Numbered from the stretch's first letter, positions 1,892 through 50,200 are shown. The stretch: 64,000 nt of DNA from Candidatus Woesearchaeota archaeon (GCA_019322375.1 JAHWIP010000003.1:6792-70791), one strand, 5' to 3'. Notes: generated by a model not told the origin, from the letters alone. Translations and numbers: made by a program.

Positions 1892-1894
1892 CGA

Positions 1895-14764: not shown

Positions 14765-14983
14765 TTATTTATTATTCTTACTAGCCAGCTTAATATCCCC
14801 TGCTTTAACAGTCCTTCTTTTAGCATGCCTGCTCAGCTCAATAGCATCCCTGCTAATCTTATCACCAAGCTCCTCAAGAACATCACGTAAAGCTTCTTTA
14901 GACTCCTCGCTAACCCTGTAAGCACCAGCAGCCTTCATAAGCTTTTCCATAGCAGACAAGGACAAAATCTTTTTAGATGCCAT
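14765..14983 (-). CDS. Archaeal histone (HMf-like histone fold)
   Basis: 72 aa; AMEKLMKAAGAYRVSEESKEALRDVLEELGDKISRDAIELSRHAKRRTVKAGDIKLA closely matches archaeal histone consensus. Confidence 0.8.
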   Translation of the reverse strand: MASKKILSLSAMEKLMKAAGAYRVSEESKEALRDVLEELGDKISRDAIELSRHAKRRTVKAGDIKLASKNNK

Positions 14984-15039
14984 AAAAAAGGTTAATTTGG
15001 AGGTTTTTATAAAGTTATTGAAAAATATTTGTTAAGCTT

Positions 15040-32261: not shown

Positions 32262-32630
32262 CTTAAGGTAGAGCAGTTATAAGCCGCCTTTTGTCAGCCT
32301 CCACGTCTTGCATGGGCAGGCTGTGCTTAACATTCTACTAAGCGTCTCAAAGGACTTGCACCAGTGAGGACTCGCCGTTTCACCCATTCCCATGGCTTAA
32401 AGCGGTCGGGTTGTTAACTCGCGCCCTGTTGCCAGAGTGCTTCATTACCCTCATTCCTATCCATAGGTGGTCTCGTTTCTGAGCCGTTGCCCTGGCTTTC
32501 ACCAGCTAGCTTCCACTAGTCACTTTTCATGGTGGGCGGACTTTCCTAAGCAGAACAAGTCAAAACCGCGCCTTTGAAAGCGCAGGAAATGATAGGTCCT
32601 ACCTGCTGTTAAGCCACTGCCCTACCTGTG
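32262..32630 (-). ncRNA. rnpB: RNase P RNA (type A)
   Basis: On minus strand: GGAAAGUCCGCCCACC (P4 5' strand), AUGGGUGAAACGGCGAGUCC (conserved J11/12-like block), ACAAAAGGCGGCUUAUA (P4 3' strand complementary to GUCCGCC); GC-rich ORF-free about 370 nt. Confidence 0.75.
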
Positions 32631-32699
32631 CATAAGAGGGTTTTAAGGGTTTAAAAAGCTTATCTTTTTTCGCCTCTATAGTAACATTTAAATACTAAT

Positions 32700-32754
32700 A
32701 ATTTCAAGGATAAGAGATAGGATTTAATACTTAAAAAAATAGAGGTGATTATCC
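32700..32754 (+). promoter_or_regulatory. Putative promoter/RBS of pilin operon (TATA-like ACATTTAAATACT; SD GAGGTGA)
   Basis: A/T-rich TATA-like box about 60 nt upstream and GAGGTGA 7 nt upstream of ATG 32755. Confidence 0.3.
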
Positions 32755-33042
32755 ATGGATAAAAAAGCCCAGGGTCTGAGTATGAATGTTATTATAATAG
32801 CAGCAATAGCTCTTTTAGTGCTTATCATTCTTGCTGTTCTTATCCTGAGAGCAGGTAAAGGAGTGACTGAAGGTACAGGGTGCAGAGGTGTTGGAGGAAT
32901 TTGTTATTCTAGCTGCACAGACTTGATTGAGGACAGAGGCGGAATGTGGGTTAAGAATCTTCCTAACAGCGGAAAGAATGGTGGCTGTTCAATAGACCAG
33001 GTTTGCTGTGTTGAACTATTAGAAACACCTGAGGATTACTAA
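32755..33042 (+). CDS. Small Cys-rich type IV pilin-like protein (major pilin candidate 1)
   Basis: 95 aa; MDKKAQGLSMNVIIIAAIALLVLIILAVLIL class III signal-like; C-terminal 6-Cys module ending QVCCVEL. Confidence 0.55.
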   Translation: MDKKAQGLSMNVIIIAAIALLVLIILAVLILRAGKGVTEGTGCRGVGGICYSSCTDLIEDRGGMWVKNLPNSGKNGGCSIDQVCCVELLETPEDY

Positions 33043-33044
33043 AA

Positions 33045-33335
33045 ATGAAGTTCTTGAATAATAAGAAAGGAGTCCAGCTAACCCTTTCTACAGTGGTTAT
33101 TGCAGTGCTTGTAATCATTGTGCTCATAGTGTTGATAGTGATTTTTACCCAGGGAACAGGCTTGTTCAACATAGGAATAACCAGCTGCGCTGATAGGGGA
33201 GGTAATTGTAATTACGAATCAGCAGATCAATGCGTTGATACTGGCGGCAGTGTTTACAGGTTTGGCAAGTGCACCGACGGGGTTTGCTGTATTCCTAAGG
33301 ACAAGCTTTCAGGGCAAGATGATAATCAAGACTAA
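33045..33335 (+). CDS. Small Cys-rich type IV pilin-like protein (major pilin candidate 2, tandem paralog)
   Basis: 96 aa; MKFLNNKKGVQLTLSTVVIAVLVIIVLIVL; C-terminal Cys module ending GVCCIPKD. Confidence 0.55.
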   Translation: MKFLNNKKGVQLTLSTVVIAVLVIIVLIVLIVIFTQGTGLFNIGITSCADRGGNCNYESADQCVDTGGSVYRFGKCTDGVCCIPKDKLSGQDDNQD

Positions 33336-35157
33336 TAAGAAGAGGGCTGAGCTCACTATAACCCAAGTAGTACTCATGGTTCTGGGTGTAGTTGTTCTTA
33401 TTGTGCTGCTTTTTGTTTTGAAAATAATACCCACAGGAATTAGAAGTCTTACGAGCTGCTCTGACTGGGGGCAGTGCAGGCCAGGAAATGTTTGCGCACC
33501 AAATGAATACATAAAATTTGAAGCAAAGGATGACTGTCCTGCAAACCATGTGTGCTGCGTGCCTACAACCACAAGGCCAGGACCTCTTCAGGATTTTAAT
33601 GAAAAAGAGCTTGAATACCTGAGAAATGCTATTATCATAAAGCTTAACAATGACCCTACGCCTATAAGCGATGTAGCAAGCCTTAACTTAAAAGTTGATA
33701 CTAATTATACATTTCGTATAAGTATTAATGATAAGCTCACCAAGGATAAAAAAACAAGTGAAAAGCTTGGCCCTTGCGCTGTTTATGTGGTTGACACAAG
33801 AGAAGCAGGCAAGAAATATTTATTAACAAATAAAGGCTGGGACTTGATTCTTTCTGACAAAGAGATTGATTTGAGCGGCATAGAGCTGGCTGAGTGCACT
33901 GAAGAAAGCATTAGGTTAAAAAAATATTCTCCTTCACTAAATGATGTTTACAAGGACTTGGTGCTGTATGTTATTCTTTTGGATAAGGAAGTTGTTGATG
34001 CACTTGAAGTATTAGAAACACACGACCCTGGCTTTGTTAAACTAACTGCTCCTGGGTTTGGCAGTGGAATTAATCTCCCTGATAGGGGGATGGCAGCTTT
34101 TTATAATCTCACAACAATGTACAGCAATGTTGACCACTGGCTTGCTTACAGAGCCATAAGACTTAATGTTGAGCCAGTAGTCCAGATTAGTGGTATGAGC
34201 GGAATATGGGTTGACAAGGACCCAATAACCATATCCTGCCCTGATGTTACCTGCATCAGGTTTGGCTTAAAACTAGTGAAACTAAAAGACAATGATTATT
34301 TACAGTTGGTAGAAGAGTGCAAGAAGCCAGAAGGCTTTAAGTACACTCTTGATTATGTTGCAGGAACAACAACAAAAACAACAGGCATACCATTGAACAT
34401 TAATATTGGAGGTTTCAGGATTCCTCCTCAAAGACAAAAACTCCAGTACATTGTAAGCCAAAAACCAATAACTGTTGTTAATAATAAAGCAGATGTTTTG
34501 ATTGACAGGGCTACCATGCTAAAAACCTTTTACTCAGGAGACCACGAGTTATTAATCGAGGACACTACTTATCTTTGCGTAGAAGCCACCAAGGATGACG
34601 GCTCAAAGGTTCATGGGCTCTCAGAGCAGCCTATTAAAGTGGATGTTTTTCCGCCCATGGTTGACCCTGACAAGGATGTGCAGTTATTTTATCCAGACCC
34701 AGTGATCTCATCAGACATATCAACCCCTTATTATTACAGGAAGTACCCTAAGATTGTTGTTTCTGGATGCTATGATTATGGCCAGAGCGGATGCACTAAT
34801 TATGATTACTATATTCATTCAGGAGAATTTGTTAATCTAAGGTCTCTGACAGCAGAGTGGGAGATAGGAATTGCTTCTTTGATACTAACAGAGGGCTTGA
34901 ATGCCCTGCTCACTTATTTTGCAGAAAAAGATGCTGTCAACACTATATGCCCGTTTATAACCAGCCATTCTTACACAAGAAACACCCGCAATGAGATAAG
35001 AATCCCAAGGCAAGGGCAGGGCATAATATGCATCAGGGTTAGTGACAAAGTAGGCAACAAAGACATTATCTGGAAGGTGCTCTGGACACCTGAAGAGATG
35101 TTCAAGAAAATTATTGCAGAAGGAGTGGCAGAGGCAGAAGAAGCAGTGACTGGATAG
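33319..35157 (+). CDS. Large pilin-like secreted protein (N-terminal module paralogous to small pilins)
   Basis: Start at MIIKTNKKRAELTITQVVLMVLGVVVLIVLL; same Cys module (..NHVCCVP) then about 500-aa extracellular region. Confidence 0.5.
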   Translation: MIIKTNKKRAELTITQVVLMVLGVVVLIVLLFVLKIIPTGIRSLTSCSDWGQCRPGNVCAPNEYIKFEAKDDCPANHVCCVPTTTRPGPLQDFNEKELEYLRNAIIIKLNNDPTPISDVASLNLKVDTNYTFRISINDKLTKDKKTSEKLGPCAVYVVDTREAGKKYLLTNKGWDLILSDKEIDLSGIELAECTEESIRLKKYSPSLNDVYKDLVLYVILLDKEVVDALEVLETHDPGFVKLTAPGFGSGINLPDRGMAAFYNLTTMYSNVDHWLAYRAIRLNVEPVVQISGMSGIWVDKDPITISCPDVTCIRFGLKLVKLKDNDYLQLVEECKKPEGFKYTLDYVAGTTTKTTGIPLNINIGGFRIPPQRQKLQYIVSQKPITVVNNKADVLIDRATMLKTFYSGDHELLIEDTTYLCVEATKDDGSKVHGLSEQPIKVDVFPPMVDPDKDVQLFYPDPVISSDISTPYYYRKYPKIVVSGCYDYGQSGCTNYDYYIHSGEFVNLRSLTAEWEIGIASLILTEGLNALLTYFAEKDAVNTICPFITSHSYTRNTRNEIRIPRQGQGIICIRVSDKVGNKDIIWKVLWTPEEMFKKIIAEGVAEAEEAVTG

Positions 35158-35321
35158 CAAGTTAACTTAACATCTCCCTTCTTAATAAAACCGAAAGTTT
35201 ATTATAATTCTGTTATGATAGATTAGGATATGAAAAAAGGAGATTTGTCAACACTGGCAACTGTTATAATTATATTATTAACTCTTGTGTTTATAATCTT
35301 TATTTTCGGAAGAATCTATGG

Positions 35322-36299
35322 GTGGTGGGGTTGAAAAGGATGAGCAGGATTAATAAAAAAGCAGGATTAAGCACATTACAAACAATTATCATTATCCTGC
35401 TCATATTTGTTGTTCTATTAATCTTTTACCAGGACTTAAGAGCAACTCTGTTAAAAAAATCTAACAGAGAGATATGCAGGGCTACTGCTCTTGCCCAGTC
35501 TGTTGCTGTGTGGGCGCCTGAAGGAGAGAATTTGGTTAGTCTTGAATGCAAGACTTACAAGGTTGTGTTTTTTGAAGACCATGTTGAGATTAATGATGAA
35601 ATAATTGAGGTGTATGACCCCAGGAAAAAAGATGTTGTTAAAAAGTTTAATGGCTTAACAGAGGACATTGTTAACTGGGTGATTGCAGAGGAGCTCAGAT
35701 GGTGCTGGTGGCAGTTTCTTGAAGGAAAAAAAAGCTTGTTAAACATGAAGAACTTTTTTGGCTCAGCAGAAAGAACCTGTTTTTTATGCACTGAAATAAC
35801 TTTTGATGAATCAGTTAAGACTGATGAATTCAAAAACTTCTTTAAGTACACCAAGGAAAAAACAATGCCTAATTCTGAAATGACTTATTACCAGTACTAT
35901 GCTGAGGAGCCCAGGAAGTGCATCTGGAGGTATGAAGAGATTATTGATGCAGATAATTGCTGGGAAGCCTATGCACAGGGCATCTCGCCTAATATAATAA
36001 CCAGCACTGTACAGCATTTTAAAGAGGCATTTAGCCATTGCTCAGGCATAATACCTGCTCTTTCAACTTACTGGTCTTCTGTAACGCATTATAGTGTTGT
36101 TAAAAACATAACCTTTGAGAAAGATAAAAAGTATGCTGTGACTTTTGTAAGGGAAGGAGCAACCTCAAGGCATCTTGAGCTAGAAAAATTAGTAAAAGGA
36201 GAGACTGATTGTTTTTTTGAAACTTATTTTTCATATGTAATCCCTTCTGATGAACTAGGAAAGCACTGCGGCCCTGTGAGAAGAGGCTCTATGAAATAA
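35322..36299 (+). CDS. Pilin-like secreted protein
   Basis: MSRINKKAGLSTLQTIIIILLIFVVLLIF (KKAG|LSTLQ class III motif); 325 aa, Cys/Trp-rich. Confidence 0.5.
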   Translation: MVGLKRMSRINKKAGLSTLQTIIIILLIFVVLLIFYQDLRATLLKKSNREICRATALAQSVAVWAPEGENLVSLECKTYKVVFFEDHVEINDEIIEVYDPRKKDVVKKFNGLTEDIVNWVIAEELRWCWWQFLEGKKSLLNMKNFFGSAERTCFLCTEITFDESVKTDEFKNFFKYTKEKTMPNSEMTYYQYYAEEPRKCIWRYEEIIDADNCWEAYAQGISPNIITSTVQHFKEAFSHCSGIIPALSTYWSSVTHYSVVKNITFEKDKKYAVTFVREGATSRHLELEKLVKGETDCFFETYFSYVIPSDELGKHCGPVRRGSMK

Positions 36300-36300
36300 A

Positions 36301-37197
36301 ATGAACAAGAAAGCCATTGTGTTTGACAAACTCATGACAGCTGTTCTGATAATCATTGTGCTGGCTGTTTTTATTTTTTTCCTGGTAAAGATAAAAATCC
36401 ATGCCTTAAAAATTGTTGAGGATTCTGAGTGCAAAGCAAGCATTATCAGCCATGCAACTCTTTTAAGGGTGACTGGAGAAGACACAACACCAGACATTCA
36501 CTGCCCTACCAAATATTATACTCTTCCAAAAGAAAGCAATGAAGAAATAAAGCATTATATTGCTGATTCATTAAAGACCTGCTGGGGAACCTGGGGCAAA
36601 GGAGAGCTTCAGTTATTTAACCAGCAAGGCTATTACTGCCATGTGTGCTCTGTGATTGATTTTGATGATAAAACAAAAAAAATACAAGGCCTGAACAATT
36701 ACCTGATTAATACGCCAACAGATAAAGATACCCCTCTCACATACATGGACTACCTCACAGGTTATGCATCTGAAAAAGCAGACCCTGCATTAATACAAGA
36801 GGTTCAGGAAAAAGGTTTTTCAGACACCATACACACTTCAAAGCCTTATGCAGTCATGTTTGTTTATGCCAAAGGAAAAACAGGTGTTAAAGCATTTCTT
36901 GATGGCATGGATGCTCTTGGCCTGGGAACAACAGGAGGAGGAATCACTACAGGGCTTGCACTGGGCTCAGCAGCAGGCATAGGGCTGGCAGCAGCAGGAG
37001 TGGCAAGTGGTGGAGCAGCAATTGTTATAGCAGGAGCAGTCACAGCTGCTGGCGGAGTGATAGGCTATATAACAGCAGATGATACTCACTGGATAGCCCT
37101 TACATTGTTCACAGAATACAATGCTGAAACCCTGAAAAGCATTGGGTGCGAGATAGCCCCTGCAAAGCAGGACAGAAAAACTGATGAAACTGGTTAA
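36301..37197 (+). CDS. Pilin-like protein with C-terminal Gly/Ala-rich glycine-zipper segment
   Basis: MNKKAIVFDKLMTAVLIIIVLAVFIFFLV; C-terminus GLGTTGGGITTGLALGSAAGIGLAAAGVASGGAAIVIAGAVTAAGGVIGYI. Confidence 0.45.
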   Translation: MNKKAIVFDKLMTAVLIIIVLAVFIFFLVKIKIHALKIVEDSECKASIISHATLLRVTGEDTTPDIHCPTKYYTLPKESNEEIKHYIADSLKTCWGTWGKGELQLFNQQGYYCHVCSVIDFDDKTKKIQGLNNYLINTPTDKDTPLTYMDYLTGYASEKADPALIQEVQEKGFSDTIHTSKPYAVMFVYAKGKTGVKAFLDGMDALGLGTTGGGITTGLALGSAAGIGLAAAGVASGGAAIVIAGAVTAAGGVIGYITADDTHWIALTLFTEYNAETLKSIGCEIAPAKQDRKTDETG

Positions 37198-37280
37198 AAA
37201 ACTTAATTTGGTGATTTAGTTAAAGCGAAAGCATTAAAAAACACAAAAGCATAAAAAATCTTGAAACAAGAGGTTTTAAC

Positions 37281-37442
37281 ATGAGTTATGGCATGAACCG
37301 TATGAACAAGAAAGCCCAGGAAACAATGAGTCCTGAAGGCGGCACACTAAGAATAATATGGTTTGTGATTGTCTTATTAGTACTTATTATTATTGTTTAT
37401 TTTGTTGCAACAAATTTTAAACTAATCAAACTGCCATTTTGA
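37281..37442 (+). CDS. Small membrane peptide (53 aa) within pilin cluster
   Basis: MSYGMNRMNKKAQETMSPEGGTLRIIWFVIVLLVLIIIVYFVATNFKLIKLPF; below ORF-track cutoff. Confidence 0.3.
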   Translation: MSYGMNRMNKKAQETMSPEGGTLRIIWFVIVLLVLIIIVYFVATNFKLIKLPF

Positions 37443-37451
37443 GGTTAAGAA

Positions 37452-38285
37452 ATGAAGCTGATAAATGCTATTGGTGCCATTGTTTTAGGATTGTTTGTAT
37501 TAATTATACTAATCCTGATATTTGTTCCAAACACATTCAAAATTGTTAATAATATCTTTCTTATTATTGGCCAACAATTAGGCTTTAACCCAGCAGTTCC
37601 TGGAGGTGAAGACTATGGCTTTGGAGGGCTTTATGGAAGCACACCATCAACTATTCCAACTGATGCTGAGCCAGAGCGTATTAAAAAAGTCAAAACAAAG
37701 CCAGGCATTCCTGTTGATGAAAAATATTTTGGAGAGCTCTACTCTTATTCCAGGGAAGGAGCACTTGTTGACACCATTGTACTGCACCACACAGGGGATA
37801 ATAAAGCTTCGCAAACATTCAATACTCTGAAAAAAAGAGAGCTTTCAGTGCATTATGTTGTTGACAAGGACGGCACAATATATTACTTGATAGATGAGAG
37901 CACAAAAGGCGCTCATTGCGGTTGCTGCCCGCCAAGCAACCCGACTTGTTGCAAAGCAGGAGAAAACTGTCCTGTTTGCCTGAATGAAGAATTAAGAGAA
38001 ATGAATGCCAAATCAATAGGCATTGAAATTGTTAACACAGGATATGCAGATGATTACTACACTAATGAGCAATATGTTTCAATAGATAAACTGATAAATG
38101 ATATTGCAAGCAGATGGACTGCTATTGCTGTTGATAATGAGCATGTGCTTGGGCATTACCAGATTACACTGGGTAAGTGGGATCCTTCACCTGTTTTTAA
38201 ATGGGCAAGAATACAAGGATTGTCAGGCCACTTAATGCTTGCAGACATAGGAAAAAAAGCACCCTCTGAATACGGCTATACATGA
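37452..38285 (+). CDS. N-acetylmuramoyl-L-alanine amidase (Amidase_2/PGRP domain) with pilin-like N-terminal anchor and Cys-rich insert
   Basis: TIVLHHTGDNKAS..LSVHYVVDKDGTIYYLIDESTKGAHCG..NAKSIGIEIVNTG..VLGHYQI..KWDPSP = Amidase_2 signature; N-term MKLINAIGAIVLGLFVLIILILIFV; insert CGCCPPSNPTCCKAGENCPVC. Confidence 0.8.
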   Translation: MKLINAIGAIVLGLFVLIILILIFVPNTFKIVNNIFLIIGQQLGFNPAVPGGEDYGFGGLYGSTPSTIPTDAEPERIKKVKTKPGIPVDEKYFGELYSYSREGALVDTIVLHHTGDNKASQTFNTLKKRELSVHYVVDKDGTIYYLIDESTKGAHCGCCPPSNPTCCKAGENCPVCLNEELREMNAKSIGIEIVNTGYADDYYTNEQYVSIDKLINDIASRWTAIAVDNEHVLGHYQITLGKWDPSPVFKWARIQGLSGHLMLADIGKKAPSEYGYT

Positions 38286-38352
38286 GTTTGTGACAGAGCA
38301 TTAAAATACACTGAGACACATTAAAATAATAGCAAAGTTTATATACAAAGAT

Positions 38353-39081
38353 TTGCAAGAATTATATGAGATGAAACCCTTGTTTTCAAAGAATAAAAAA
38401 AAGAAAGGCTTGTCAACCCTTGGAACCATTATAGGACTAATACTTTTACTAGCAGTCCTGGCAATCTTTCTTCCGGTTATTCTTCGCGCAGGCAAAACAA
38501 CTGATGAAGTCCCCAAAGACATAATGGACCCTGTCAAGGCATGCCATGGAAAAGAGAGTGGTGAGGAATGTTATCTTGGCGGAATAGCTGGTTTTTGCAG
38601 GGATTTCAGGTGTGTTATAGAGACTTCAGCAAAAAACATGAAAGAATCAATAACTATTTTCAAGACAACTTTCAAGGACAGCATTGAGAATTGCCAGAAA
38701 GATGTAGCCCAGTGCCCTGAGGCAACAAAGGCTCTGGACTTAATGATTGGTTATTTCACAGATGCAGGGCTTGTTGTTCATAGATTAGCCTCAGACAGAG
38801 CAGAGTTCAGGCTATACCAGGAAAAAAACTTTTTAGGTATTGGAGGGCATAAAGCCTCTTTTGTTTTTTACGGCGATACTTGTGTAATAGAGAAGAAAGG
38901 GGATAATGATGTTCCTACATCGGGCAAAAACTTTAAGCTTGGGATCAAAAAAGAAAGCAAAGGTTTTGTAGTATATGACCTTGAAAAAACTGCTGCTGAA
39001 CTAGGCACTTTTATATCTTTCAGGCATCAAACCCAGAATGATGCAACCACCCCGGTCTGTGTTTATTACACTACAGATTAG
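38353..39081 (+). CDS. Pilin-like secreted protein
   Basis: MKPLFSKNKKKKGLSTLGTIIGLILLLAVLAIFL (KKG|LSTL); 6 Cys. Confidence 0.5.
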   Translation: MQELYEMKPLFSKNKKKKGLSTLGTIIGLILLLAVLAIFLPVILRAGKTTDEVPKDIMDPVKACHGKESGEECYLGGIAGFCRDFRCVIETSAKNMKESITIFKTTFKDSIENCQKDVAQCPEATKALDLMIGYFTDAGLVVHRLASDRAEFRLYQEKNFLGIGGHKASFVFYGDTCVIEKKGDNDVPTSGKNFKLGIKKESKGFVVYDLEKTAAELGTFISFRHQTQNDATTPVCVYYTTD

Positions 39082-39154
39082 CAATGCTAAAATAAATTTT
39101 ATTATCATAAAATATTTAATTATTAAAAAAAATTGATTGCAAAGGTGAACTATT

Positions 39155-39808
39155 TTGTTAACAAAATCAAGAAAAGGACTTTCCCTTTTAGGAATGCTTG
39201 GTGGTGTAATCATAGTAGTTGTACTGGTTATTGTTCTAATCAATATTTTCATTAACAGAGGAGCCAAGCCTCTGGAGAACATCACTGGAGAGATAATTAC
39301 CTGCGGAGGACTTGCAGGTGTTATTGGCGGGGGAGAAGGGGTTTGTATAAGCAAAAGCACTCTTTGCGACGGCCCAAAGCTTCCTAATCCTGAGTGCAAG
39401 GCTAGCAATCCTGACAAGCCTTATTGCTGTTTTAAACAAGCAGAGGGTGCTGAAGGCCCTCCTGGTTCTGGCCCGACGGCTTGTGTTAAGGATGTTGACC
39501 CCTGGGAACCTGTAATTGTTGAAGACGATTATGTTTGCGCTTCTAGTAAGGAGGCGTGCGAGCAGACTATGAATTTTGTTAATGTTCTGAATGAATGTGC
39601 TCAATTTAGTGAAGGTTGTGAATGCAAGGATGAAGTAGAAGGAATTGAGCACCCTTGTGAAGGCAATCTTAAATGGGCTCTTTTTGGCCTTGATAAATCT
39701 GAGCCTAAACATGAAGTTGTTATGAAATGCTATCCTGCTGTTAAGGAATGCGAGGATTCAAATGAATGTGAGCGTTGTGTTCCAAACCATTTTGAATGTG
39801 CAGAATAA
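39155..39808 (+). CDS. Pilin-like Cys-rich secreted protein
   Basis: MLTKSRKGLSLLGMLGGVIIVVVLVIVLI; about 20 Cys. Confidence 0.5.
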   Translation: MLTKSRKGLSLLGMLGGVIIVVVLVIVLINIFINRGAKPLENITGEIITCGGLAGVIGGGEGVCISKSTLCDGPKLPNPECKASNPDKPYCCFKQAEGAEGPPGSGPTACVKDVDPWEPVIVEDDYVCASSKEACEQTMNFVNVLNECAQFSEGCECKDEVEGIEHPCEGNLKWALFGLDKSEPKHEVVMKCYPAVKECEDSNECERCVPNHFECAE

Positions 39809-39872
39809 TAACTCTGTTAATTCTTCCCCACCGAAACAAATTTATACTTATTAAGCAAGTTTCTTATGTATT

Positions 39873-41027
39873 ATGGCTTGGATGAATAAAAAAGGCGGTG
39901 AAAGACAGATTGGACTTAGCGAACTTACGCTTTATGTGTTTGTCATTCTGCTTATAGTTGTCTTATTTATTGTTAGCTATAGGTTTATCGGAGCTTTTCT
40001 CAGAGGAGGAGTTGATAAAGACACTGAGTCTAATTTTGTGTCACTGGCAGAGAACCTTGAGTTAATGATTGAGAAAGACGCAGGGTTTGAATACCAGACC
40101 ATGATTTTTTATATGAAAGAAAAGCATTTTGTGTTTGGCTTTACATCCAAGCAGGCTCTTTCCTCTTCTCCAGCAAAGCATTTTATGCCTGAGAAATGCA
40201 ATGAGCACTCATGCCTTTGCCTGTATAAAGAACCTGATGATGTAGCAGATGACAAGCCTGTCAAGTGCATATCTTTTGGGCACAAGGTTATTTTTCATGG
40301 CTATGACTTAAAAAAAGTGTCTGCTGCTCAGCTGGTTTATCCTGACCTAGGAGCAGAGCTGGGTGCGCGTGAGCAAGGAGAATCTTATTATTTATCTGAT
40401 TATCCTGAAACTATTTCTTTTTATATAGAAGGCTTGTTTATTGGCCCTTCACTAGACAATCCTCATGACCTTTACCTGGAAAAAATAGTTGCTAATAACA
40501 GGGTGCATGTTTTTGTGACTCCTGGCCTTAAGCAGGAAATGATAGAGACAAGGATTGAACTGTTATCTCCCTGCCCTTTTGATTCTGATGAAGAATGCAT
40601 GGGCAAGAGAAGAAACTCTGTTCTGGGCAGTAATGATTATTGTTTTTATGATGAGAGCCAGGCTAAGTGCTTGTTAAAAAAAGATGTGGATGCCTGTTCT
40701 TTCTCAGACAGAATTACACAGCCCTGTCTTTGCGGCTCTACATTTATAGACCCAGACACCAGGACAGAAGAAACCTATTGTTATCAAAAATCTGATAAAA
40801 GGATTTTTGTCCTTCCATTTGACTGCGATTCAGAGGAATTAAGAGAAAAAAAATGCCTTGCTTACTGCAGGGCAATCACTGATACAGAGGACTGCGACAC
40901 AAGAGAACAGGATTACTGTGATAAAGACCCTTGCGAGTTTGCTTCTAAAGAAAAGCCGTGCGAAGTGCGCCCATTAGGCAAAAAAACTTATTGTGCTTCT
41001 TACTCAAGGGATTACAGCATGGATTAA
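39873..41027 (+). CDS. Pilin-like Cys-rich secreted protein
   Basis: MAWMNKKGGERQIGLSELTLYVFVILLIVVLFIV; about 25 Cys. Confidence 0.5.
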   Translation: MAWMNKKGGERQIGLSELTLYVFVILLIVVLFIVSYRFIGAFLRGGVDKDTESNFVSLAENLELMIEKDAGFEYQTMIFYMKEKHFVFGFTSKQALSSSPAKHFMPEKCNEHSCLCLYKEPDDVADDKPVKCISFGHKVIFHGYDLKKVSAAQLVYPDLGAELGAREQGESYYLSDYPETISFYIEGLFIGPSLDNPHDLYLEKIVANNRVHVFVTPGLKQEMIETRIELLSPCPFDSDEECMGKRRNSVLGSNDYCFYDESQAKCLLKKDVDACSFSDRITQPCLCGSTFIDPDTRTEETYCYQKSDKRIFVLPFDCDSEELREKKCLAYCRAITDTEDCDTREQDYCDKDPCEFASKEKPCEVRPLGKKTYCASYSRDYSMD

Positions 41028-41113
41028 TAATAGTTGCTTGGATTAATAATAATTATTAGTAATTGTTCTAAAAACCTAAATCTTTTTAAACTCGTTTATC
41101 AACAATTTAAGTT

Positions 41114-41596
41114 ATGAGTTTTTATGATTTTAATAACAAGAAAGCCAGGAGCATGATTGCAACTTCTTTTTATGTATTATTTGGCTTGATGCTGGGAGCC
41201 TTTTTTGTGATAGCTGTTCTTGGAAGAGTTAAGGATGCTGTTGGTGATTCTGCTTATCATAAAAAGTTTTATTCCAGGGACCTGGCCTTGCTTGTTGATG
41301 CCTTGCATGCCAGCAATGGAAAGTTTGTTGTTGATTATGATGTTAATCTTCCAGACAACATGCTCCTGGACTTTGGTCTTGAGCCTGGAGCAGTCATCTT
41401 AACAGACCGCTCTGACACACTCATGGATAACAGGCATAAAACTGCTTTTTTGTTTGGGCATAATGATTATGTAAAAATAATTCCTGTCACAATTGACAAG
41501 AACATGCTTAAATTGTTAGTGGTGGCTGATAACAACACCATTACATTTGAAGAGAAAGGGATGGATGATTTAAGTACAAATGATAAAGAGGAGTGA
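41114..41596 (+). CDS. Pilin-like protein
   Basis: MSFYDFNNKKARSMIATSFYVLFGLMLGAFFVIAVL. Confidence 0.45.
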   Translation: MSFYDFNNKKARSMIATSFYVLFGLMLGAFFVIAVLGRVKDAVGDSAYHKKFYSRDLALLVDALHASNGKFVVDYDVNLPDNMLLDFGLEPGAVILTDRSDTLMDNRHKTAFLFGHNDYVKIIPVTIDKNMLKLLVVADNNTITFEEKGMDDLSTNDKEE

Positions 41597-41629
41597 TTTA
41601 AGTATAAATGATTTAAGCAAAGAATAAGG

Positions 41630-42169
41630 ATGAGAATAATAAAAAAGAGGCTGAGCCTGAATAACAAAAAGGGGTTGGGAACTGAGGAGTGGCTTGAACT
41701 TCTGCCTTACATAGTGTTAACAGTGGTTGTAATGGTGGCTATTTTTGCCCTGATAAACCTTTTTGTTAATATTTCTGTTGATGTTAAGCCTGTTCAAAGG
41801 GAAGTTCTTTTCTACAGGCTGATGTATGCTCCTAACTCAATTATGTATATGGATAATCTTACTGGCAGGGTTCACCCTGGTGTTATTAGCTGGGATAATT
41901 TTACCAACCAGACCCTTGACAAATCTATTGCTTATGATTATGAAAGGCATATATCTGCAAAATTGATATTATATAACCTGGAAAAAGAGCCAATCAAAAC
42001 AGCTTATCTTAATGGGCTGTGGTTTAACCGCTTAGAGCCTTTGGCCAGGAGCAGGATTAAGGGTGCAGGCAGTGCAGAGCTCTACACCAAGAAAATCCCT
42101 GTTGTTTACAGGAGAAATGATGTGAACAGGGCAGGCTATCTTAAAGTTGAGATTATCATTCCAAACTAA
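41630..42169 (+). CDS. Pilin-like protein
   Basis: ..NNKKGLGTEEWLELLPYIVLTVVVMVAIFALI (KKG|LGTEE, Glu at +5 as in bacterial T4 pilins). Confidence 0.5.
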   Translation: MRIIKKRLSLNNKKGLGTEEWLELLPYIVLTVVVMVAIFALINLFVNISVDVKPVQREVLFYRLMYAPNSIMYMDNLTGRVHPGVISWDNFTNQTLDKSIAYDYERHISAKLILYNLEKEPIKTAYLNGLWFNRLEPLARSRIKGAGSAELYTKKIPVVYRRNDVNRAGYLKVEIIIPN

Positions 42170-42184
42170 CAGCGAGTGATTTGA

Positions 42185-42853
42185 ATGAGCAGTTTGATTA
42201 ATTCAAGAAAAGGCATGAAAACCATTGTGACAATATTATCAGTTGTCTTGTTAGTATTCATATTCATAATATTTATTTTTCTTTTCAGGCTTGGCGCCAG
42301 GAACAAGGCAGAAAGCATAGAATCAGATTTTTCCTCTGTAAGAACAGAGTTTTTGCTTAAAACCTTTTTAAGAACACCAGCTGTTATTAGTGATGATTAC
42401 CCTGTTGAAGACTTGTTCCCTGGCATAGGAGAAGGCATTACCAATGCAGACCTGGTATCATGGACATGTAGTAAGGATAAAGACAGGAATTACAAGACCT
42501 TGAAAAACTCAATAAACACTTTTTTTGATGAGGCATATGAAGATGACTGGGAAGCATGGATAATCTATTCTAATCCTAAAGTAAAAAAGAAGGGCTTTGG
42601 GCACAAGAGTTATCTTGAAGGGATTGAGAAAAGCATAAACCGCTTGCTAACAGCAGGACAGCTGGCTTTGCTAGCAGCCAAATCATCAGACCCAGCCAGC
42701 AGGGGATTAATCTTCAAGCTTTTTATAACTCCTTATCGTGAAGCAGGCTTTGGCTCCCAGGTGGTTCCTTGCCCAGACGGAGAACTAGCCCAGATAATGC
42801 TTTACTCCCACACAGCATTTATTGAAATAAAACACCTGAAAGGCTTAACATAA
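42185..42853 (+). CDS. Pilin-like protein
   Basis: MSSLINSRKGMKTIVTILSVVLLVFIFIIFIFLF. Confidence 0.45.
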   Translation: MSSLINSRKGMKTIVTILSVVLLVFIFIIFIFLFRLGARNKAESIESDFSSVRTEFLLKTFLRTPAVISDDYPVEDLFPGIGEGITNADLVSWTCSKDKDRNYKTLKNSINTFFDEAYEDDWEAWIIYSNPKVKKKGFGHKSYLEGIEKSINRLLTAGQLALLAAKSSDPASRGLIFKLFITPYREAGFGSQVVPCPDGELAQIMLYSHTAFIEIKHLKGLT

Positions 42854-42865
42854 GATAAAATAAAA

Positions 42866-45800
42866 ATGGATAAAGTAAAACTGAGATTAAAAAACAGAAA
42901 AGCACAGGTTTACCCGCTTTTTGTAGTGGTCTTTACAATAGTGGCCTTGACAACAGCCCTTATTGGCTTGAGCAATGCAAAAGAGGTTACTGATTTATCT
43001 GGCAGGGAAATGCTTATCGGCACCAAGCAATCAGCTGTTTTTGCATCTCTTCAAGACGCAGATGCTGTTAGTTTATTCATAGAGCAGGCAGCAGAATTTG
43101 CAGGCCAGCAAGCCCTGGATAAAATAAGAAAATCATGCTTTTTTGGAGTTGATGAGGAACAAGAAGTTGATGAGTGGGAGTCTCCATGCGGCAAGTTTGT
43201 TTATCCTCTTTGGAGCACTAATGAAAATCTTTGCCTTCCTGATTGTGAAACAGCTTTTGTCAATGCCTTTAACAAGGATTTTTTAAGCCGAACAAACAAG
43301 TATTATGAGTTCACAAACATAGAGCTGCCTATTTCTTATAACATGAGCCTGGAAATACATGACAATCATTTTTTTGTTCATGGAACCTCTGACACAGAAC
43401 TAAGGATTAATGTGGTTGATATTCAGAGCAGGATTAAGTCTCCCCTGGCAATAGCCCAGACTTATGAGGAAGGCAGGCTTATCTGGCCTGTTGATTACTC
43501 TGACCACACAATCACCTCTTGCTTTGGTGAAAGAGATGTTGTTGGGGGGAGCAAATACCATCCTGCTGTTGATATCCGGGCTCCAAAAGGAACACCAGTG
43601 CTGGCAGCTGCTTTAGGAAAAGTGATTCTTACTGACCCTTGCTGGGGAAGAATTGTTATTAATCATGGCTCTGGCTTAAGCACAGAGTATCTTCACTTGG
43701 AAAAAATTGATGTTAAGGTTAATGATGATGTGGTGCAGGGACAAAGAATAGGAACTTCTGGCAGCAATGGCTGTGACACAAGAGAGTTTGTTCCGCACCT
43801 GCATTTTGGGGTTATATATCAAGGTGTTCAGTCACCCATGCATTATAAAGGGCAGGAAATAGTTTTGAGCAACAACCATATCCAGCCCATGTGCTTGATT
43901 GAAAAAGGGTATGCTGCTAAGCCAGAAAGCAACTGCAACCAGCTTGTGAACACAGACTTAGACAAGATTTGTGAATTGTATAATCTGCCAGAAGAATTTT
44001 TTGAATCATCAGAATCATCAAAGCCATCAGAGCCATCAGAACCAGACCAAGACACTTCTTCTGAAGAAAGTGCTGATGCAGAGAATGCTGGTGCAGAAAG
44101 TGTTAATGCAGAAAGCACTGAGCTGGATTATTCTCTGGCACAGGCTCCTGGCAGCTATGCTTTTAAACCATCTTTTACCTTGAGGGTTAACAAGAAAATA
44201 GAAAACCCTATTGAGCCAGTAACAGAGTGGTTTGAGAACACCTGGAACGAGTGCGAGGATGACCCTTGGAAATGTTTAAGAGAAAAAATGAGTGAGTTTA
44301 ATGAGCAGGACTATGATTACAAGCTCATGTTTGCTGACAGGTGCGAGGAAGGCTATCACTTGTTCTATGACATACTGGAGTTTTTTGAGGACTGCTTTTC
44401 AAACCAGAAGTATGGGTGCTCATGCGAGTTTAATTTATCAGATGCTTTTTCAATAACTGACTTGCGAATAGTTTTTGACACACAAGCAAACACAGCCTCT
44501 CTTTTTTCCAAGCAGGGAGATAAGCCTGGTGATGAATATGAATTAATTGATTCATACCAGTTCTATTATGGAAGCATAACCAAGCCAGCCCCTGCTTCTC
44601 CTTATAGGTATTATGTGTATCAGCTTGATTATGATGATTATGGGGAGCTGGAAAATGCAGAGCTTATGCAAATGAAGTCATTGCTTGATGTATTTGATGT
44701 TGTGCCTTTTTTTGATTACAAAGAACTAAGACTGGCAAAGCCAGGAGAGGCTGAGCAAGGATATTTTGTGAACACAGAAACAATTCAGTGCAAGTACAAG
44801 AAGAACAAGTTCAGGCTGTGTGCAAAGCCAGCACAGGAAAGAGAAGACTTGTTCCCTATAAGGTTTGCTTTTCACTTAAAAGACAAGCCTCCTGAGCCTG
44901 TTAAAAAAGGAGATGTGGAAATTATAGAGGTGGAGGAGAGTTCTGAGTCAGATGTTGACAAGGTAATGCAGGCAGCAGGCTTTCTAGGAACCATATTCCC
45001 TCCTCTAGGCTACTTGTTCACAGCAATTAATATTCTCAGTGTGTTGGAAGACTTTAAACCAAGAAAGTTCGAGGTAATAGTTGATGTTCCTCTTGACAAG
45101 GATGGCAAACCCCTGGATGTTGCTGGCTATGAAGTTTATTGCAGTGATTACCTGACAAACATCCTGCCAGTGGATGTTTTGGATAAATATAATCCAAGTC
45201 ATTTTGTTGTGATGGCTAATGATGAGATGAATAAAAAAGTAAGCCAGCTAGACCAGTATGTTAAGAAGAACCCTTACACAGACTTTCTGAATCTTGAGAG
45301 CTGTGATGTGCCTGTGAGCAAGTTCACAGGAGAAACCATTCTTGTGCCTGGAATCAAAGGGGTTGTTAAGGACGGTAAAATGGTTTTCAACCTTCATAAA
45401 TGCGGGGACTTGGCAATAATTATAGATAAACTAATAAGAAAAGACTACTGTGTATCACTAATACCTGTTGACAAGAATGGCAACAAGATAATGGAGCATG
45501 CTGTGAGCAACTGCGCGCAAACCAATTCACTGCTTGACCTGGTTATTAGTGAGATGATAGAGGAACAGCTAGGAGAATTTATTCCTGCAAGCCTTATACC
45601 TGATAATTTAAAGCCTTATATCAAGCTGCCTGACACAAGCGATATTGTTAATGCAGTAACAGGGGAAGGCAGTTTTGACATGATAGACATTGTTAATCTT
45701 GACAAGCTGGACGCAGACATAAAAAATTATCTTGAGGAATTCGTGGTTGGAACTATTAATGAAGACATAATAGGCACTTCTGTTGTTAATTCTATTGATG

Positions 45801-46639
45801 ACTTAAAGCTCTGGGAAAAACAAACAGTGCTTAACACCCTGTCAAACCAGATAAAAAATGATGATGCAAAAACCTTGTTTGATGCCTTTGTAACAGGAGA
45901 AGGTGTTGCTGAGTCTGCCAAGCGCATGGCTTATGAAAAAGGAGTAGGATATATAGACCAGACAAAAACACCTGAGATACTTAAGGAGATAGCCAAAGGA
46001 GAAGACCCTAAAAGCCTTGCATACCAGGAACTGGTAAAAGCAGCTGAGAAAGAGCTCAGCACTGACGAGAAAAAACAGGCTCTGCTGGAGATAGCCAGGA
46101 GCAGCAGTGGAAGAGAGGTAAAAGATAAGATAATAGAAAAAGCCCTTGAAAAAGGATGCGGCGAGTCATATGGAATAAGTGCAGAGCAGGCAATCAACTG
46201 CCTTGACAATGAAGAGGTAGAAAATATTTATCACAAAGTTCTGACAGACTACAGCACACCAGACAAGGTAAAACAGTTTTTGCTTGACAAGGCAATTGAC
46301 AAGTTTGATGAAAAAACACCAGACGTGCTAAAAGAGATTGTTCTGAAAAGAGACTTTAAAGGAGCAGCAAAGGACATGCTTGAGAAAGAGCTTGACAAGC
46401 TTCCAGACGCTGTTAAGAAAGAGTTTATTACTGATATACTTGAAGGCAGGCTTCCAGATGTTGAGTACTTGCAGCAGGAACTAGTGAAAATGATACCAGC
46501 AGTAAACAATGAATATGTGAATGCCCTGCTAAAAGACGGCAATGTTAAAAACCTGATAGAATCAACCCTTAAATCAGAGATAGAAAAACAACTAGGCTCA
46601 TTCTTCTCAGATGAATGCGTGGCAATTAATAAGGATTGA
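42866..46639 (+). CDS. Giant pilin-like secreted M23 (LytM-type) metallopeptidase
   Basis: 1257 aa; N-term MDKVKLRLKNRKAQVYPLFVVVFTIVALTTALIGL; M23 motifs YHPAVDIRAPKGTPV (HxxxD) and VPHLHFGV (HxH) at about residues 230-320; acidic Ser-rich linker; long K/E-rich helical C-terminus. Confidence 0.8.
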   Translation: MDKVKLRLKNRKAQVYPLFVVVFTIVALTTALIGLSNAKEVTDLSGREMLIGTKQSAVFASLQDADAVSLFIEQAAEFAGQQALDKIRKSCFFGVDEEQEVDEWESPCGKFVYPLWSTNENLCLPDCETAFVNAFNKDFLSRTNKYYEFTNIELPISYNMSLEIHDNHFFVHGTSDTELRINVVDIQSRIKSPLAIAQTYEEGRLIWPVDYSDHTITSCFGERDVVGGSKYHPAVDIRAPKGTPVLAAALGKVILTDPCWGRIVINHGSGLSTEYLHLEKIDVKVNDDVVQGQRIGTSGSNGCDTREFVPHLHFGVIYQGVQSPMHYKGQEIVLSNNHIQPMCLIEKGYAAKPESNCNQLVNTDLDKICELYNLPEEFFESSESSKPSEPSEPDQDTSSEESADAENAGAESVNAESTELDYSLAQAPGSYAFKPSFTLRVNKKIENPIEPVTEWFENTWNECEDDPWKCLREKMSEFNEQDYDYKLMFADRCEEGYHLFYDILEFFEDCFSNQKYGCSCEFNLSDAFSITDLRIVFDTQANTASLFSKQGDKPGDEYELIDSYQFYYGSITKPAPASPYRYYVYQLDYDDYGELENAELMQMKSLLDVFDVVPFFDYKELRLAKPGEAEQGYFVNTETIQCKYKKNKFRLCAKPAQEREDLFPIRFAFHLKDKPPEPVKKGDVEIIEVEESSESDVDKVMQAAGFLGTIFPPLGYLFTAINILSVLEDFKPRKFEVIVDVPLDKDGKPLDVAGYEVYCSDYLTNILPVDVLDKYNPSHFVVMANDEMNKKVSQLDQYVKKNPYTDFLNLESCDVPVSKFTGETILVPGIKGVVKDGKMVFNLHKCGDLAIIIDKLIRKDYCVSLIPVDKNGNKIMEHAVSNCAQTNSLLDLVISEMIEEQLGEFIPASLIPDNLKPYIKLPDTSDIVNAVTGEGSFDMIDIVNLDKLDADIKNYLEEFVVGTINEDIIGTSVVNSIDDLKLWEKQTVLNTLSNQIKNDDAKTLFDAFVTGEGVAESAKRMAYEKGVGYIDQTKTPEILKEIAKGEDPKSLAYQELVKAAEKELSTDEKKQALLEIARSSSGREVKDKIIEKALEKGCGESYGISAEQAINCLDNEEVENIYHKVLTDYSTPDKVKQFLLDKAIDKFDEKTPDVLKEIVLKRDFKGAAKDMLEKELDKLPDAVKKEFITDILEGRLPDVEYLQQELVKMIPAVNNEYVNALLKDGNVKNLIESTLKSEIEKQLGSFFSDECVAINKD

Positions 46640-48091: not shown

Positions 48092-50200
48092 TTATCTTAC
48101 AACCCTGTCAAGACCAGCTTTTATAAAGGGCTCTTTTAATTTGTTTAATGCTTTTAATTCAATCTGTCTTATTCTTTCCCTGGTAACTTTGAATTCTATA
48201 CCAACTTCGTCCAAGGTATGGAAATTATACTTACCAATTCCAAAGCGCATGTAAAGAATTTTAATTTTTCTTTTACGGTCAGGATCCTTTTTAAAAGTGT
48301 CATGGATAACTTTTCTGACCTGATAACCTACTAATGATTGTGCAGCAGCATGTTCAGTATCAGCTTTTGGATCCTCAACAAGCTCACCTATTTCAACCTC
48401 TACTTCTTCTCCTATTGTTGTTGATAGTGAGATTGGTTTTTCAGCCCATTTTTTATACTTCTCAACTCTTTCCTCAGCAACATTCATTTCTTTAGCAACT
48501 TCTTCTGTTGTTGGCTCTCTGCCTAACCTGCCAAATAATTTCCTGGCAATTCCCAAGTACTTGTTTATTTTTTCCACTGAATGCACAGGAGTCCTGATAG
48601 TCCTTGCCTGGTCTGCTATAGCCCTTGTTATTGACTGTTTAATCCACCAAGTAGCATATGTTGAAAATTTATACCCTCTTCTGTATTCCCAGCTGTCTAT
48701 TGCTCTTAGAGCTCCCATGTTTCCCTCCTGAATCAGGTCAGTAAATTCCATACCCCTGTGCTGGTATTTTTTTGCTATACTCACAACCAGTTTTGTATTT
48801 GAACTTGCAAGCTCATTTTTGTTAGATATAAGCTCATCATGAAGCTTTTCTATTTCAGGGCTAACAGGGTCAAGATGAGGAAATATTGATTTGTAAGTTT
48901 CATAAGTTTTTTTCCAGTATTTTTTTTTGAATTTAAGTTTGCTAAGAAGCTTTTTCAGTGCAAAATCTCCTTTTTCTTTGGCATTATGAAAGTTCTCTAT
49001 AAATTCTATTTTTTCCCGAGCAGTCTTCTCATAACCTTTCCAAAGTCGTACTATTTCATCCGGGTGATTTATTTTAATAGCCTTTTCTATATCTTTTACA
49101 ACATAATCAACCAGGCATTCTGGCTTCTTATTGTCGCCTTGCAGGGAGCGCTCTTCAGACAATCCATTGTACAAGAAATTCCTGCTCTCAATTGTTTTGA
49201 ACTCATTAAACAGTTCTGTTAAGTATTTTGTTACAAACAAGTATTTTCCTAGAAAAGATTTTAGGGCTTTCTCCCTTCTTTTCTCAGCCTTTTCAAACTT
49301 TTTTTTGAAGACGTTCACATCTTCACAACAAATAATATCTTCAAGGTCTTTTCCCTTGTTTTCAAGGGTTTCATCCAAGCTTTCACCATGTTTTTTATTC
49401 AAGGCTTCCTGGGCTTCCAGGGCTTCATTAATATCCTTTCTTATTTTATTTAAGATATATTTTTTCTCAATAATATGCTTGAATATTTCTTCTCTTTTCT
49501 GCTCTATTTTTTTTCCAAAAGCATATTCCTGCTCTCTTGTTAGCAAGGCGTGCTTGCCCATGGAACTTAAAATAAAACTTGTTTCACTGCCAATATATGT
49601 CTTTCTCAAGTCTACTTTATCCTCCTCAAGGTCAGAGTACTCTTTTATCAAGAACTTATAATTATCATTAAAAATCTTATTTTTGTTTTCCAGAGCAGTT
49701 CTGTGCATGTCAAGAAGCAAGTTATAATAGAACTTTCTAACATCTGCCCTGTCATATTTTTTTCCATAGTCTAACTTAACAGGGTCGACATACCTGCTTA
49801 GTATAATGTCATGTTTTTTCATGTATGGGTCTCCGAATTCTTTTGGAGTCTTGGTTTCAATCTCTCTTTTTTTTTGCATCAGGTATGCCATAAATCCCCT
49901 TAACGAGATATAACTGTCTCTGTTTATATAGTCCAGGCAGAAAAAAGGATTTTTCTTAGCAAGCTTGATAAGAGCGCTGTTTTCAATATGAAATACTTTA
50001 GCAAGGTCAGCTGTTCTGAGCCTTTGGGAGTATCCAACTTCTTGTTTTAGAACAGAACCTTTTTGTATCAGGTCAAGAAAGAATTTTGAATCCATCTCTA
50101 TGTTTTCCCAGACAGAGGCTCCGAATTTTTCTTTGATTTGAGCAGGGCGCAGGTATATACCTTTGCTCTCTTCTAGAAAAGCATGGGCTGCTTCTTGCAT
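48092..50200 (-). CDS. Bacterial-type primary sigma-70 family factor homologue (regions 1.2, 2, 3, 4 present)
   Basis: [17 protein letters not shown] (region 1.2); [76 protein letters not shown] (regions 2.1-2.4, near-identical to RpoD consensus); ..[38 protein letters not shown] (region 4 HTH). Confidence 0.8.

Follow-up and report, generated by a model that had tools for sequence, protein, structure and literature searches.

A conserved six-cysteine module with a beta-defensin-like framework behind the N-terminal helix of pilin-like proteins in a Woesearchaeota operon

A 64,000-nucleotide (nt) stretch of DNA from a Candidatus Woesearchaeota metagenome-assembled genome (MAG; DPANN archaea; GCA_019322375.1, JAHWIP010000003.1:6792-70791), referred to here as the window, carries three adjacent plus-strand genes, P1, P2 and P3, at positions 32755-35157. 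Their products share a compact module of six cysteines that directly follows an N-terminal hydrophobic helix. A prediction made from the sequence alone (hereafter the original prediction) had described P1 and P2 as tandem paralogues of pilin size, had seen their cysteine module again in the 612-residue product of the next gene, and had proposed that it marks a new pilin subfamily or a defensin-like toxin delivered on a pilus. An open reading frame (ORF) scan returned the genes exactly as that prediction had placed them: P1 (95 amino acids, aa) at 32755-33042, P2 (96 aa) at 33045-33335, and P3 (612 aa from its ATG) at 33319-35157; its attribution of the sequence to DPANN archaea agrees with the source record. 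P1 and P2 are separated by 2 nt, P2 and P3 overlap by 17 nt, and the stop-to-stop frame of P3 begins at 33235. The NCBI hypothetical proteins KY348_00440 and KY348_00445 are identical to P2 and P3, respectively. Together, P1-P3 are the first three genes, at the 5' end, of a plus-strand block of 14 consecutive, tightly packed ORFs (32755-46639) that we refer to as the operon.

The three proteins begin alike. P1 has the basic leader MDKKA, a hydrophobic helix that runs to about residue 31, and a six-Cys module from C43 to C85 (nt 32881-33009). P2 has the leader MKFLNNKKG, a helix, and a canonical module from C48 to C82 (nt 33186-33290; CADRGGNC...VCCIP), and P3 has the leader MIIKTNKKRA, a helix, and a module from C47 to C80 (nt 33457-33558). 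In each, the hydrophobic stretch after the leader is about 22-26 residues long. P1 and P2 consist of the helix, a single module and a short acidic tail, and P3 continues behind its module for about 520 residues with several beta-sandwich domains and an adhesin-like appearance. The module is present in all three proteins, as predicted, but the operon holds four bearers rather than three: a 217-aa protein encoded at 39155-39808 on the plus strand (leader MLTKSRKG, helix, module C50-C92, nt 39302-39430) carries a copy that ends in YCCF and is followed by a further Cys-rich tail. In all four bearers the module is about 40 residues long and comes directly after the N-terminal helix.

The cysteines lie at C43, C50, C54, C78, C84 and C85 in P1, at C48, C55, C63, C76, C81 and C82 in P2, and at C47, C53, C59, C73, C79 and C80 in P3. 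The consensus is C-x6-C-x6-C-x12-C-x5-CC with a G-G-x-C motif at the second cysteine, often extended to C-x-D-R-G-G-x-C. P1 is of a divergent type, spaced 6-3-23-5, with a shorter C2-C3 gap (3) and a 23-residue C3-C4 loop; the module of the 217-aa protein is spaced 13-6-9-9. The V-C-C-[VI]-P ending that had been assigned to the modules is found in P2 (VCCIP) and P3 (VCCVP) but not in P1 (VCCVE), although a P1 orthologue in another locus, L001, ends in VCCVP. When all six-frame ORFs of at least 50 aa were searched with the regular expression C..C..C..C..CC, four matched, all of them in the operon; residue-shuffled controls gave 0.23 ± 0.48 matches, with a maximum of 2.

Profile comparisons tie the four copies together. 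Among 640 window ORFs, a profile built from homologues outside the window found P2 (E 2e-11) and P3 (E 4e-7), ranked P1 third but weakly (E 0.3), and did not recover the fourth copy in the 217-aa protein. P1 and P2 are not significantly similar by BLASTP (E 5.3); their modules are linked by hhalign of the orthologue families, which joined the P1 type to the P2/P3 type (Prob 95.8%, E 7e-9) and the fourth type to the P2/P3 type (Prob 91%, E 1e-6). From these links we regard all four window modules as mutually homologous, with P1 and the fourth copy divergent.

Alignments of relatives indicate strong conservation of the module. For P2 there are about 13 relatives and for P3 about 24 orthologues, at 34-54% identity; in nearly all of them the module sits directly after the helix, and it is kept in about 60 sequences. 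Across alignments of 28 and 50 sequences, C1, C2, C5 and C6 are invariant, and C3, C4 and the glycine before C2 are at least 90% conserved. The gene order P1-type, P2-type, P3 recurs in seven other loci (L001, L007, L008 and L010-L013), five of which (L001, L007, L011, L012 and L013) also encode a fourth module protein of about 200 aa. The P1-type spacing across loci is 6-3-(13-24)-5. The syntenic loci come from Woesearchaeota/Nanoarchaeota MAGs, with one record labelled Methanosarcinales. That record, L012 (CAYGYA010000038.1), has a full P1/P2/P3 triad under the label 'uncultured Methanosarcinales archaeon'. Because the other triad carriers are all Woesearchaeota or Nanoarchaeota, the contig is probably mis-binned or mislabelled.

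The module is found beyond archaea and beyond pilin-like proteins, for example in bacterial lipoproteins and Sec-signal proteins, yet it is rare. An exhaustive profile search of 1.84 billion representative proteins returned only 35 at E ≤ 1e-3. Among the matches were archaeal helix-and-module proteins of about 90 aa (some with two modules), P3 orthologues, and acidic multi-repeat proteins that have lipoprotein-type signals and 3-8 modules and are encoded on contigs that are bacterial by context. One bacterial protein, P0062 (L006, 6001-6876), encoded on a 0.92-Mb contig of the Candidate Phyla Radiation (CPR) type, has a Sec signal and two modules in front of a T4SS_pilin domain (PF18895); its gene adjoins a second type IV secretion system (T4SS) pilin gene and PrgI-like, TraC-like and VirB4-like genes, that is, a T4SS locus. 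Judged from this domain arrangement, the same module decorates a different kind of filament subunit in Patescibacteria. The search also matched, at E 4e-7, a tandem-repeat defensin-like protein of the hemichordate Saccoglossus kowalevskii that itself matches Defensin_beta_2. We note that the repeats of the Saccoglossus sequences (P0046, P0074 and P0075; XP_006818646 and related) may be related to the N-terminal repeats of the ascidian protein rusticalin (PMC6339383). No Pfam or NCBIfam family covers the module in the window proteins or the relatives that were scanned, and our literature searches turned up neither this module nor any trans-defensin-like prokaryotic domain. This much of the original interpretation is upheld: a real, conserved Cys-rich domain, so far unannotated, follows a pilin-like helix, and it belongs to a rare family of extracellular prokaryotic domains.

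The nearest resemblance of the module is to beta-defensins. Against all PDB sequences, the module profile gave nine weak matches (E 0.04-3.4), eight of which are beta-defensin-fold proteins: gallinacin-11 (twice), tick carboxypeptidase inhibitor (three entries, E 0.055-0.47), crotamine, a platypus defensin-like peptide and helianthamide. The alignments shown cover the whole module including the GG-x-C motif, and a full-length P2 profile returned the same beta-defensin-fold picture. A member-by-member Pfam scan of 28 modules gave sub-threshold matches to Defensin_beta (PF00711; 5 members, best E 0.06), Defensin_beta_2 (PF13841; 2 members, best E 0.57), Inhibitor_I68 (PF10468; 3 members, best E 0.003) and Myotoxins; the full-length window proteins had no listed match to PF00711 or PF13841 at E ≤ 0.1. 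In hhalign, 50 prokaryotic modules aligned over 35 columns with 11 animal beta-defensin-fold sequences, a set compiled partly by hand and partly from the PDB matches, at 76% (E 2e-5, score 21.5). None of 200 column-shuffled controls came near this score (mean 7.3, maximum 11.9). Other cysteine frameworks scored 7-12, with probabilities of 0.3% for alpha-defensins, 3.7% for the inhibitor cystine knot (ICK) and 0.5% for cis-defensins, and beta- against alpha-defensins, which are classed together as trans-defensins (PMC11561630), reached 46.8% and a score of 19.5, below that of the module against beta-defensins.

The details of the framework point the same way. The cysteine order and terminal CC of the module fit the beta-defensin pattern C-x(4-8)-C-x(3-5)-C-x(9-13)-C-x(4-7)-CC, with individual gaps slightly outside its ranges (C2-C3 of 6 in the P2/P3 types, and a long C3-C4 loop in P1). 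The conserved Gly-x-Cys before C2 is present (G10, at least 90%) and aligns with the GG-x-C of hBD1, hBD3, gallinacin-11, crotamine and tick carboxypeptidase inhibitor. An AlphaFold2 (AF2) model of the module alignment (predicted local distance difference test score, pLDDT, 79.8) places a short helix ahead of three strands, the first and second of which are separated by an extra helix (H5-8, E11-14, H17-22, E25-28, E37-41), and an independent AF2 model of P3 has H47-50, E52-55, E63-66 and E77-82 within residues 47-82. Foldseek found no significant PDB match to the 44-residue module model. The original prediction had named knottin and defensin as topologies to look for. The knottin (ICK) reading was rejected, the sole ICK match in the PDB being 14 residues long and the hhalign probability 3.7%, and the alpha-defensin and cis-defensin frameworks were likewise rejected; the module is defensin-like in having a beta-defensin-like framework, with a predicted helix and three strands. 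In short, the cysteine framework and G-G-x-C motif match, at the level of primary structure, the beta-defensin fold class specifically, and the fold itself is probably beta-defensin-like.

Set beside the members of that fold class (PF00711 and PF13841; crotamine, platypus defensin-like peptides, the C-terminal domains of big defensins), the module shares the C-C-C-C-CC order with spacings inside or next to their ranges, and the G-G-x-C before C2 and a glycine before C4; the short N-terminal helix and three strands predicted for it would match theirs. It differs in being neutral to acidic where beta-defensins are cationic, in its C2-C3 gap of 6 in the P2/P3 types against 3-5, and in being fused to a transmembrane or pilin-like helix, or repeated in large proteins, rather than secreted as a free peptide. 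The phyletic range differs as well: the module occurs in archaea and bacteria, but descriptions of trans-defensins (alpha-, beta-, theta- and big defensins) come from animals only, and the bacterial defensins reported so far are cis-defensins (PMC11561630).

One competing explanation is that the beta-defensin likeness is convergent or illusory. The module would then be a small Cys-rich fold with no relation to beta-defensins, or a metal-binding knuckle, and its C-C-C-C-CC spacing a coincidence. We consider this a sizeable possibility, though not the favoured one. Each sequence match to an animal family is marginal (PDB E 0.04-3; hhalign 38-76%), a huge phyletic distance separates archaea and bacteria from animals, and tiny disulfide-rich domains are known to converge, cis- and trans-defensins being regarded as evolutionarily unrelated groups (PMC11561630). 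Two points weigh against a beta-defensin-like reading in particular, namely that all defensin-family matches fall below the curated Pfam thresholds and that the animal alignment had the mixed origin noted above. Against convergence stand the non-cysteine matches, G-G-x-C and the glycine before C4, and an hhalign score (21.5) that exceeds that of beta- against alpha-defensins (19.5) when other frameworks reach only 7-12. Common ancestry with the animal defensins is a separate matter, and we think it unlikely. The question of convergence touches ancestry and fold only; what we propose below for the operon is unaffected by it.

Whether the helix that carries the module is that of a pilin is the second point to be weighed. 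In 13 of the 14 consecutive operon genes, P1, P2 and P3 included, a [KR]-[GA] leader directly precedes a hydrophobic helix of at least 20 residues; the exception is an amidase gene (MKLINA-IGAIV). In archaeal class III signal peptides, the type IV pilin pattern, a [KR]-[GA] pair just ahead of a hydrophobic helix marks the cleavage site. The label pilin-like is taken from this shared leader motif, and the pilin identity that was originally proposed is plausible on that motif. Scans for pilin types in Pfam and NCBIfam gave only transmembrane-helix noise (Flp1_like, E 0.018-1.4; TadF, E 0.14), and the full-length P2-family profile found no pilin in the PDB.

In the principal alternative, the operon proteins are not pilins but type II signal-anchored surface proteins that keep their helix in the membrane, with the module serving as a membrane-proximal stalk or spacer in a hydrolase-containing surface complex. 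The N-termini, whether within the full proteins or in isolation, match neither a Pfam or NCBIfam pilin model nor a solved pilin, and among about 45 window ORFs scanned with Pfam none was recognised as a type IV filament ATPase, platform protein or prepilin peptidase; both findings count against a filament. The positive-inside rule by itself would account for K or R before a transmembrane helix, and the module also occurs on non-pilin bacterial lipoproteins and Sec-signal proteins. Plain anchors, however, would not be expected to place [KR] and then G or A right before the hydrophobic stretch in 13 of 14 genes, pilin gene sets typically consist of many small helix-first proteins in one operon, as here, and one member, of 53 aa, is helix only. 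We also count the module-bearing T4SS pilin P0062 and the modular look of P3 and the hydrolases in favour of pilins, and on the side of a filament stand as well a polytopic membrane protein and further small helix-first proteins at 26-9744 in the window. Weighing these, we regard the anchor explanation as a serious contender that is nonetheless rather unlikely, and we lean, from the leaders, towards pilin-type processing of the operon proteins.

The cluster at 26-9744 (plus strand) deserves a description of its own. Its first gene (26-1891) encodes a 621-aa polytopic membrane protein with no family match and no match to T2SSF; a metagenome scan found no relatives of the ORF at 638-1891. Behind it, helix-first proteins start at 3019, 3481, 3902, 4441, 5472, 6148, 6629 and 8128, the last of which (538 aa, 8128-9744) has an extremely Cys-rich tail with several CC and CCC runs. 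Possibly the cluster is a divergent locus for a type IV filament, with the ATPase encoded outside the window. Two further window candidates for pilus machinery were dropped when their translations proved to be a soluble Lys-rich protein and a SpoIIM-like membrane protein.

Known filament systems offer partial parallels for such an arrangement. Like the modular type IV pilins PilB and PilC of Streptococcus sanguinis (PMC8179133, PMC9934059), the operon proteins combine a class III-like leader and helix with a head and, in the P3 body, the amidase and the M23 protein, grafted modules. P1 and P2, with leader, helix and minimal head, resemble the very short Epd pilins of Methanococcus maripaludis (PMC3875500), and in both comparisons many such genes stand in one operon. 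Unlike these pilins, the operon proteins have no detectable sequence relationship to any pilin family and no assembly genes recognised nearby, and a predicted 40-residue disulfide knob takes the place of an alpha/beta pilin head or immunoglobulin-like archaeal pilin domain. The VirB2-like T4SS pilins of Patescibacteria/CPR (PF18895; PMC12102498) come from another lineage of ultra-small episymbionts, and P0062 has two modules before this very domain; they differ in having a Sec-type signal, in belonging to another pilin family and another machine, and in being bacterial.

The remaining operon genes, all on the plus strand, add two wall hydrolases to this set. Behind P3 lie two genes (35322-37197) for proteins of 325 and 298 aa with leader and helix (…NKKAG-LSTLQTIIIILL and MNKKA-IVFDKLMTAVLIII) and no module; neither has a Pfam or NCBIfam match, and both are syntenic in L001 and L007. 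The 53-aa ORF at 37281-37442 is leader and helix only (…MNKKAQ…IIWFVIVLLVLIIIVYFVA). A 55-aa counterpart stands at the same place in L007 (13885-14052), and the product could be a minimal, Flp-sized filament subunit of a kind easily missed by gene callers. The next gene (37452-38285) encodes an N-terminal helix followed by an Amidase_2 domain (N-acetylmuramoyl-L-alanine amidase; PF01510, E 4e-25; NCBIfam AmpD-like, 1e-14). It is kept in L001-L003, and in L007 a different 240-aa protein with no Pfam match takes its place. The 242-aa protein encoded at 38353-39081 (KKKKG-LSTLGTIIGLILLL) has, after its helix, a small Cys motif, ACHGKESGEECYLGGIAGFCRDFRCV, that is distinct from the six-Cys module and is retained in its L007 orthologue (14822-15541) as ACHGKLDGASCKTKEITDGVCSNGQCVV. 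Following the fourth module protein, four genes at 39873-42853 encode proteins of 384, 160, 179 and 222 aa that all begin with a [KR]-[GA] leader and a hydrophobic helix and have no Pfam or NCBIfam family match; the genes are syntenic in L001 and L007. The last gene (42866-46639) encodes a 1257-aa protein with the leader …KNRKA-QVYPLFVVVF, a helix, and a peptidase M23 domain (LytM-type peptidoglycan endopeptidase) at residues 231-321 (PF01551, E 1.8e-21), and the gene keeps this terminal position in L001-L003 and L007.

On the opposite strand, directly upstream of P1, lies a full-length archaeal RNase P RNA gene (RF00373, 121 bits; 32269-32573), which confirms the archaeal origin of the contig. 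The AT-rich spacer between the two is 180 nt long. Reading of this spacer suggests a putative archaeal TATA box, TTTAAATA, at 32687-32694 on the plus strand, 61 nt upstream of the P1 start codon, and a Shine-Dalgarno-like GAGGTGA precedes P1 at 32743-32749 on the same strand.

Archaea, to our knowledge, are without murein, and the Amidase_2 and M23 domains therefore point to bacterial walls. Genomic evidence has been presented for peptidoglycan-degrading, 'vampiristic' Woesearchaeota, for which a predatory lifestyle was proposed (PMC9723730), and archaeal peptidoglycan hydrolases have been found experimentally to kill bacteria (PMC12352652). Given this setting, we read the module, with moderate confidence, as a disulfide-stabilised head on the pilin-like subunits of a conserved surface apparatus of 13-14 genes that includes the Amidase_2 and M23 hydrolases, and the operon products as probably contact or attack equipment. 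Outside the cell, the module would form three disulfides and, as modelled, fold into a small knob of one helix and three strands. This knob would sit as a head on top of the anchor helix, with P1 and P2 as minimal subunits, and P3 and the 217-aa protein would be modular subunits whose shared stem and head let them fit the same filament or surface lattice. The amidase and the M23 endopeptidase, carried on the same type of helix, would have as their target the peptidoglycan of bacteria that are partners or prey, so that the apparatus would present an adhesin (the P3 body) and two wall hydrolases to that partner. The knob itself most likely gives a compact, protease-resistant surface and possibly binds envelopes.

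One could extend this reading to its boldest form, in which the module belongs to the beta-defensin (trans-defensin) superfamily as a genuine prokaryotic branch, present in DPANN archaea and in CPR-type and other bacteria, and serves in Woesearchaeota as the head of type IV-like filament subunits that bear adhesin, amidase and M23 modules to attach to bacteria and open their walls. Taken as a whole, this combination strikes us as doubtful.

Two further functions suggest themselves from the beta-defensin-like framework. P1 and P2 could be defensin-like antimicrobial effectors that kill or permeabilise bacterial or archaeal targets with a module either set free or displayed; the cysteine framework and fold class, the two peptidoglycan hydrolases encoded alongside, and the predatory lifestyle proposed for Woesearchaeota (PMC9723730) would suit such a role. 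The window modules, however, have net charges of 0 (P1) and -2 (P2 and P3) and their ectodomains about -3 to -4, calculated from sequence, and the prokaryotic relatives range from -10 to +2 and are mostly acidic; antimicrobial beta-defensins are strongly cationic. The module is always fused to a helix or placed inside a larger protein, internal in P3 and the 217-aa protein, and no propeptide, obvious processing site or other sign of release was seen. Several beta-defensin-fold proteins are not antimicrobial, tick carboxypeptidase inhibitor and helianthamide among them. Because the modules are neutral to acidic and fused to an anchor, the knob is probably not a free cationic antimicrobial peptide; the toxin of the original prediction finds no backing here, and we hold an antimicrobial role to be highly improbable.

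An enzyme inhibitor is the remaining candidate. Tick carboxypeptidase inhibitor (MEROPS I68; PDB 1ZLH, 2K2Z) consists of two beta-defensin-fold domains and a C-terminal tail that enters the carboxypeptidase active site, and M23 and Amidase_2 are families of zinc enzymes. The tick inhibitor and rusticalin are non-antimicrobial proteins of beta-defensin-fold repeats, and rusticalin, with two such repeats and a phage-derived peptidoglycan peptidase, parallels the co-encoding of modules with Amidase_2 and M23 (PMC6339383). In P1-P3, unlike in these proteins, the module is single, with no tandem two-domain unit and no inhibitor tail, and modules and hydrolases lie on separate polypeptides. In this role the module would hold the operon's own metallopeptidase or amidase inactive up to the moment of contact, or would act against host enzymes. 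The idea draws on the tick inhibitor being among the best PDB profile matches, on the three Inhibitor_I68 matches, on the zinc-enzyme nature of both hydrolases and on the same idea having been raised for rusticalin (PMC6339383), but with every family match sub-threshold, the tick inhibitor's two-domain arrangement and active-site tail absent, module and enzymes on separate proteins, and bacterial versions of 3-8 copies that look more like structural or binding repeats, we give it very little weight.

The operon, conserved in Woesearchaeota, places a dozen or so pilin-like proteins, among them a giant with adhesin-like features, together with two peptidoglycan hydrolases behind a single putative promoter. 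It is therefore a concrete candidate for the machinery of woesearchaeal contact or attack, and its content hints at partners that are bacteria and not archaea. The module could be added to domain databases as a family of its own, where it would label hundreds of surface proteins now called 'hypothetical'. Should the beta-defensin framework, the G-G-x-C motif and the predicted topology hold, such a conserved archaeal and bacterial domain would also be new, and a single structure could test the origin of the fold; a true prokaryotic branch would mean that a fold credited to animals either is far more ancient or was passed from one domain of life to another.

Three other genes of the window may be noted. 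On the plus strand, 7.4 kb upstream of P1, 24597-25319 encodes a membrane-anchored protein with a CSKC motif and weak matches to TraF (E 0.0055) and Thioredoxin (E 0.14), and the gene at the corresponding position in L007 (234 aa) has a weak Thioredoxin_4 match; judged from these motifs, the product could be an extracytoplasmic disulfide oxidoreductase for the many Cys-rich surface proteins. On the minus strand, 48092-50200 encodes a 702-aa protein with bacterial sigma-70 regions 1.2, 2, 3 and 4 (Pfam E 1e-20 to 2e-5) on this archaeal contig, a bacterial-type gene that was probably acquired by this DPANN lineage. Also on the minus strand, 58923-61412 encodes an 829-aa protein that starts with a hydrophobic helix and also has a MopE-like metal-binding motif and a gingipain-like peptidase C25 domain (E 1e-7), a candidate for another secreted hydrolase.

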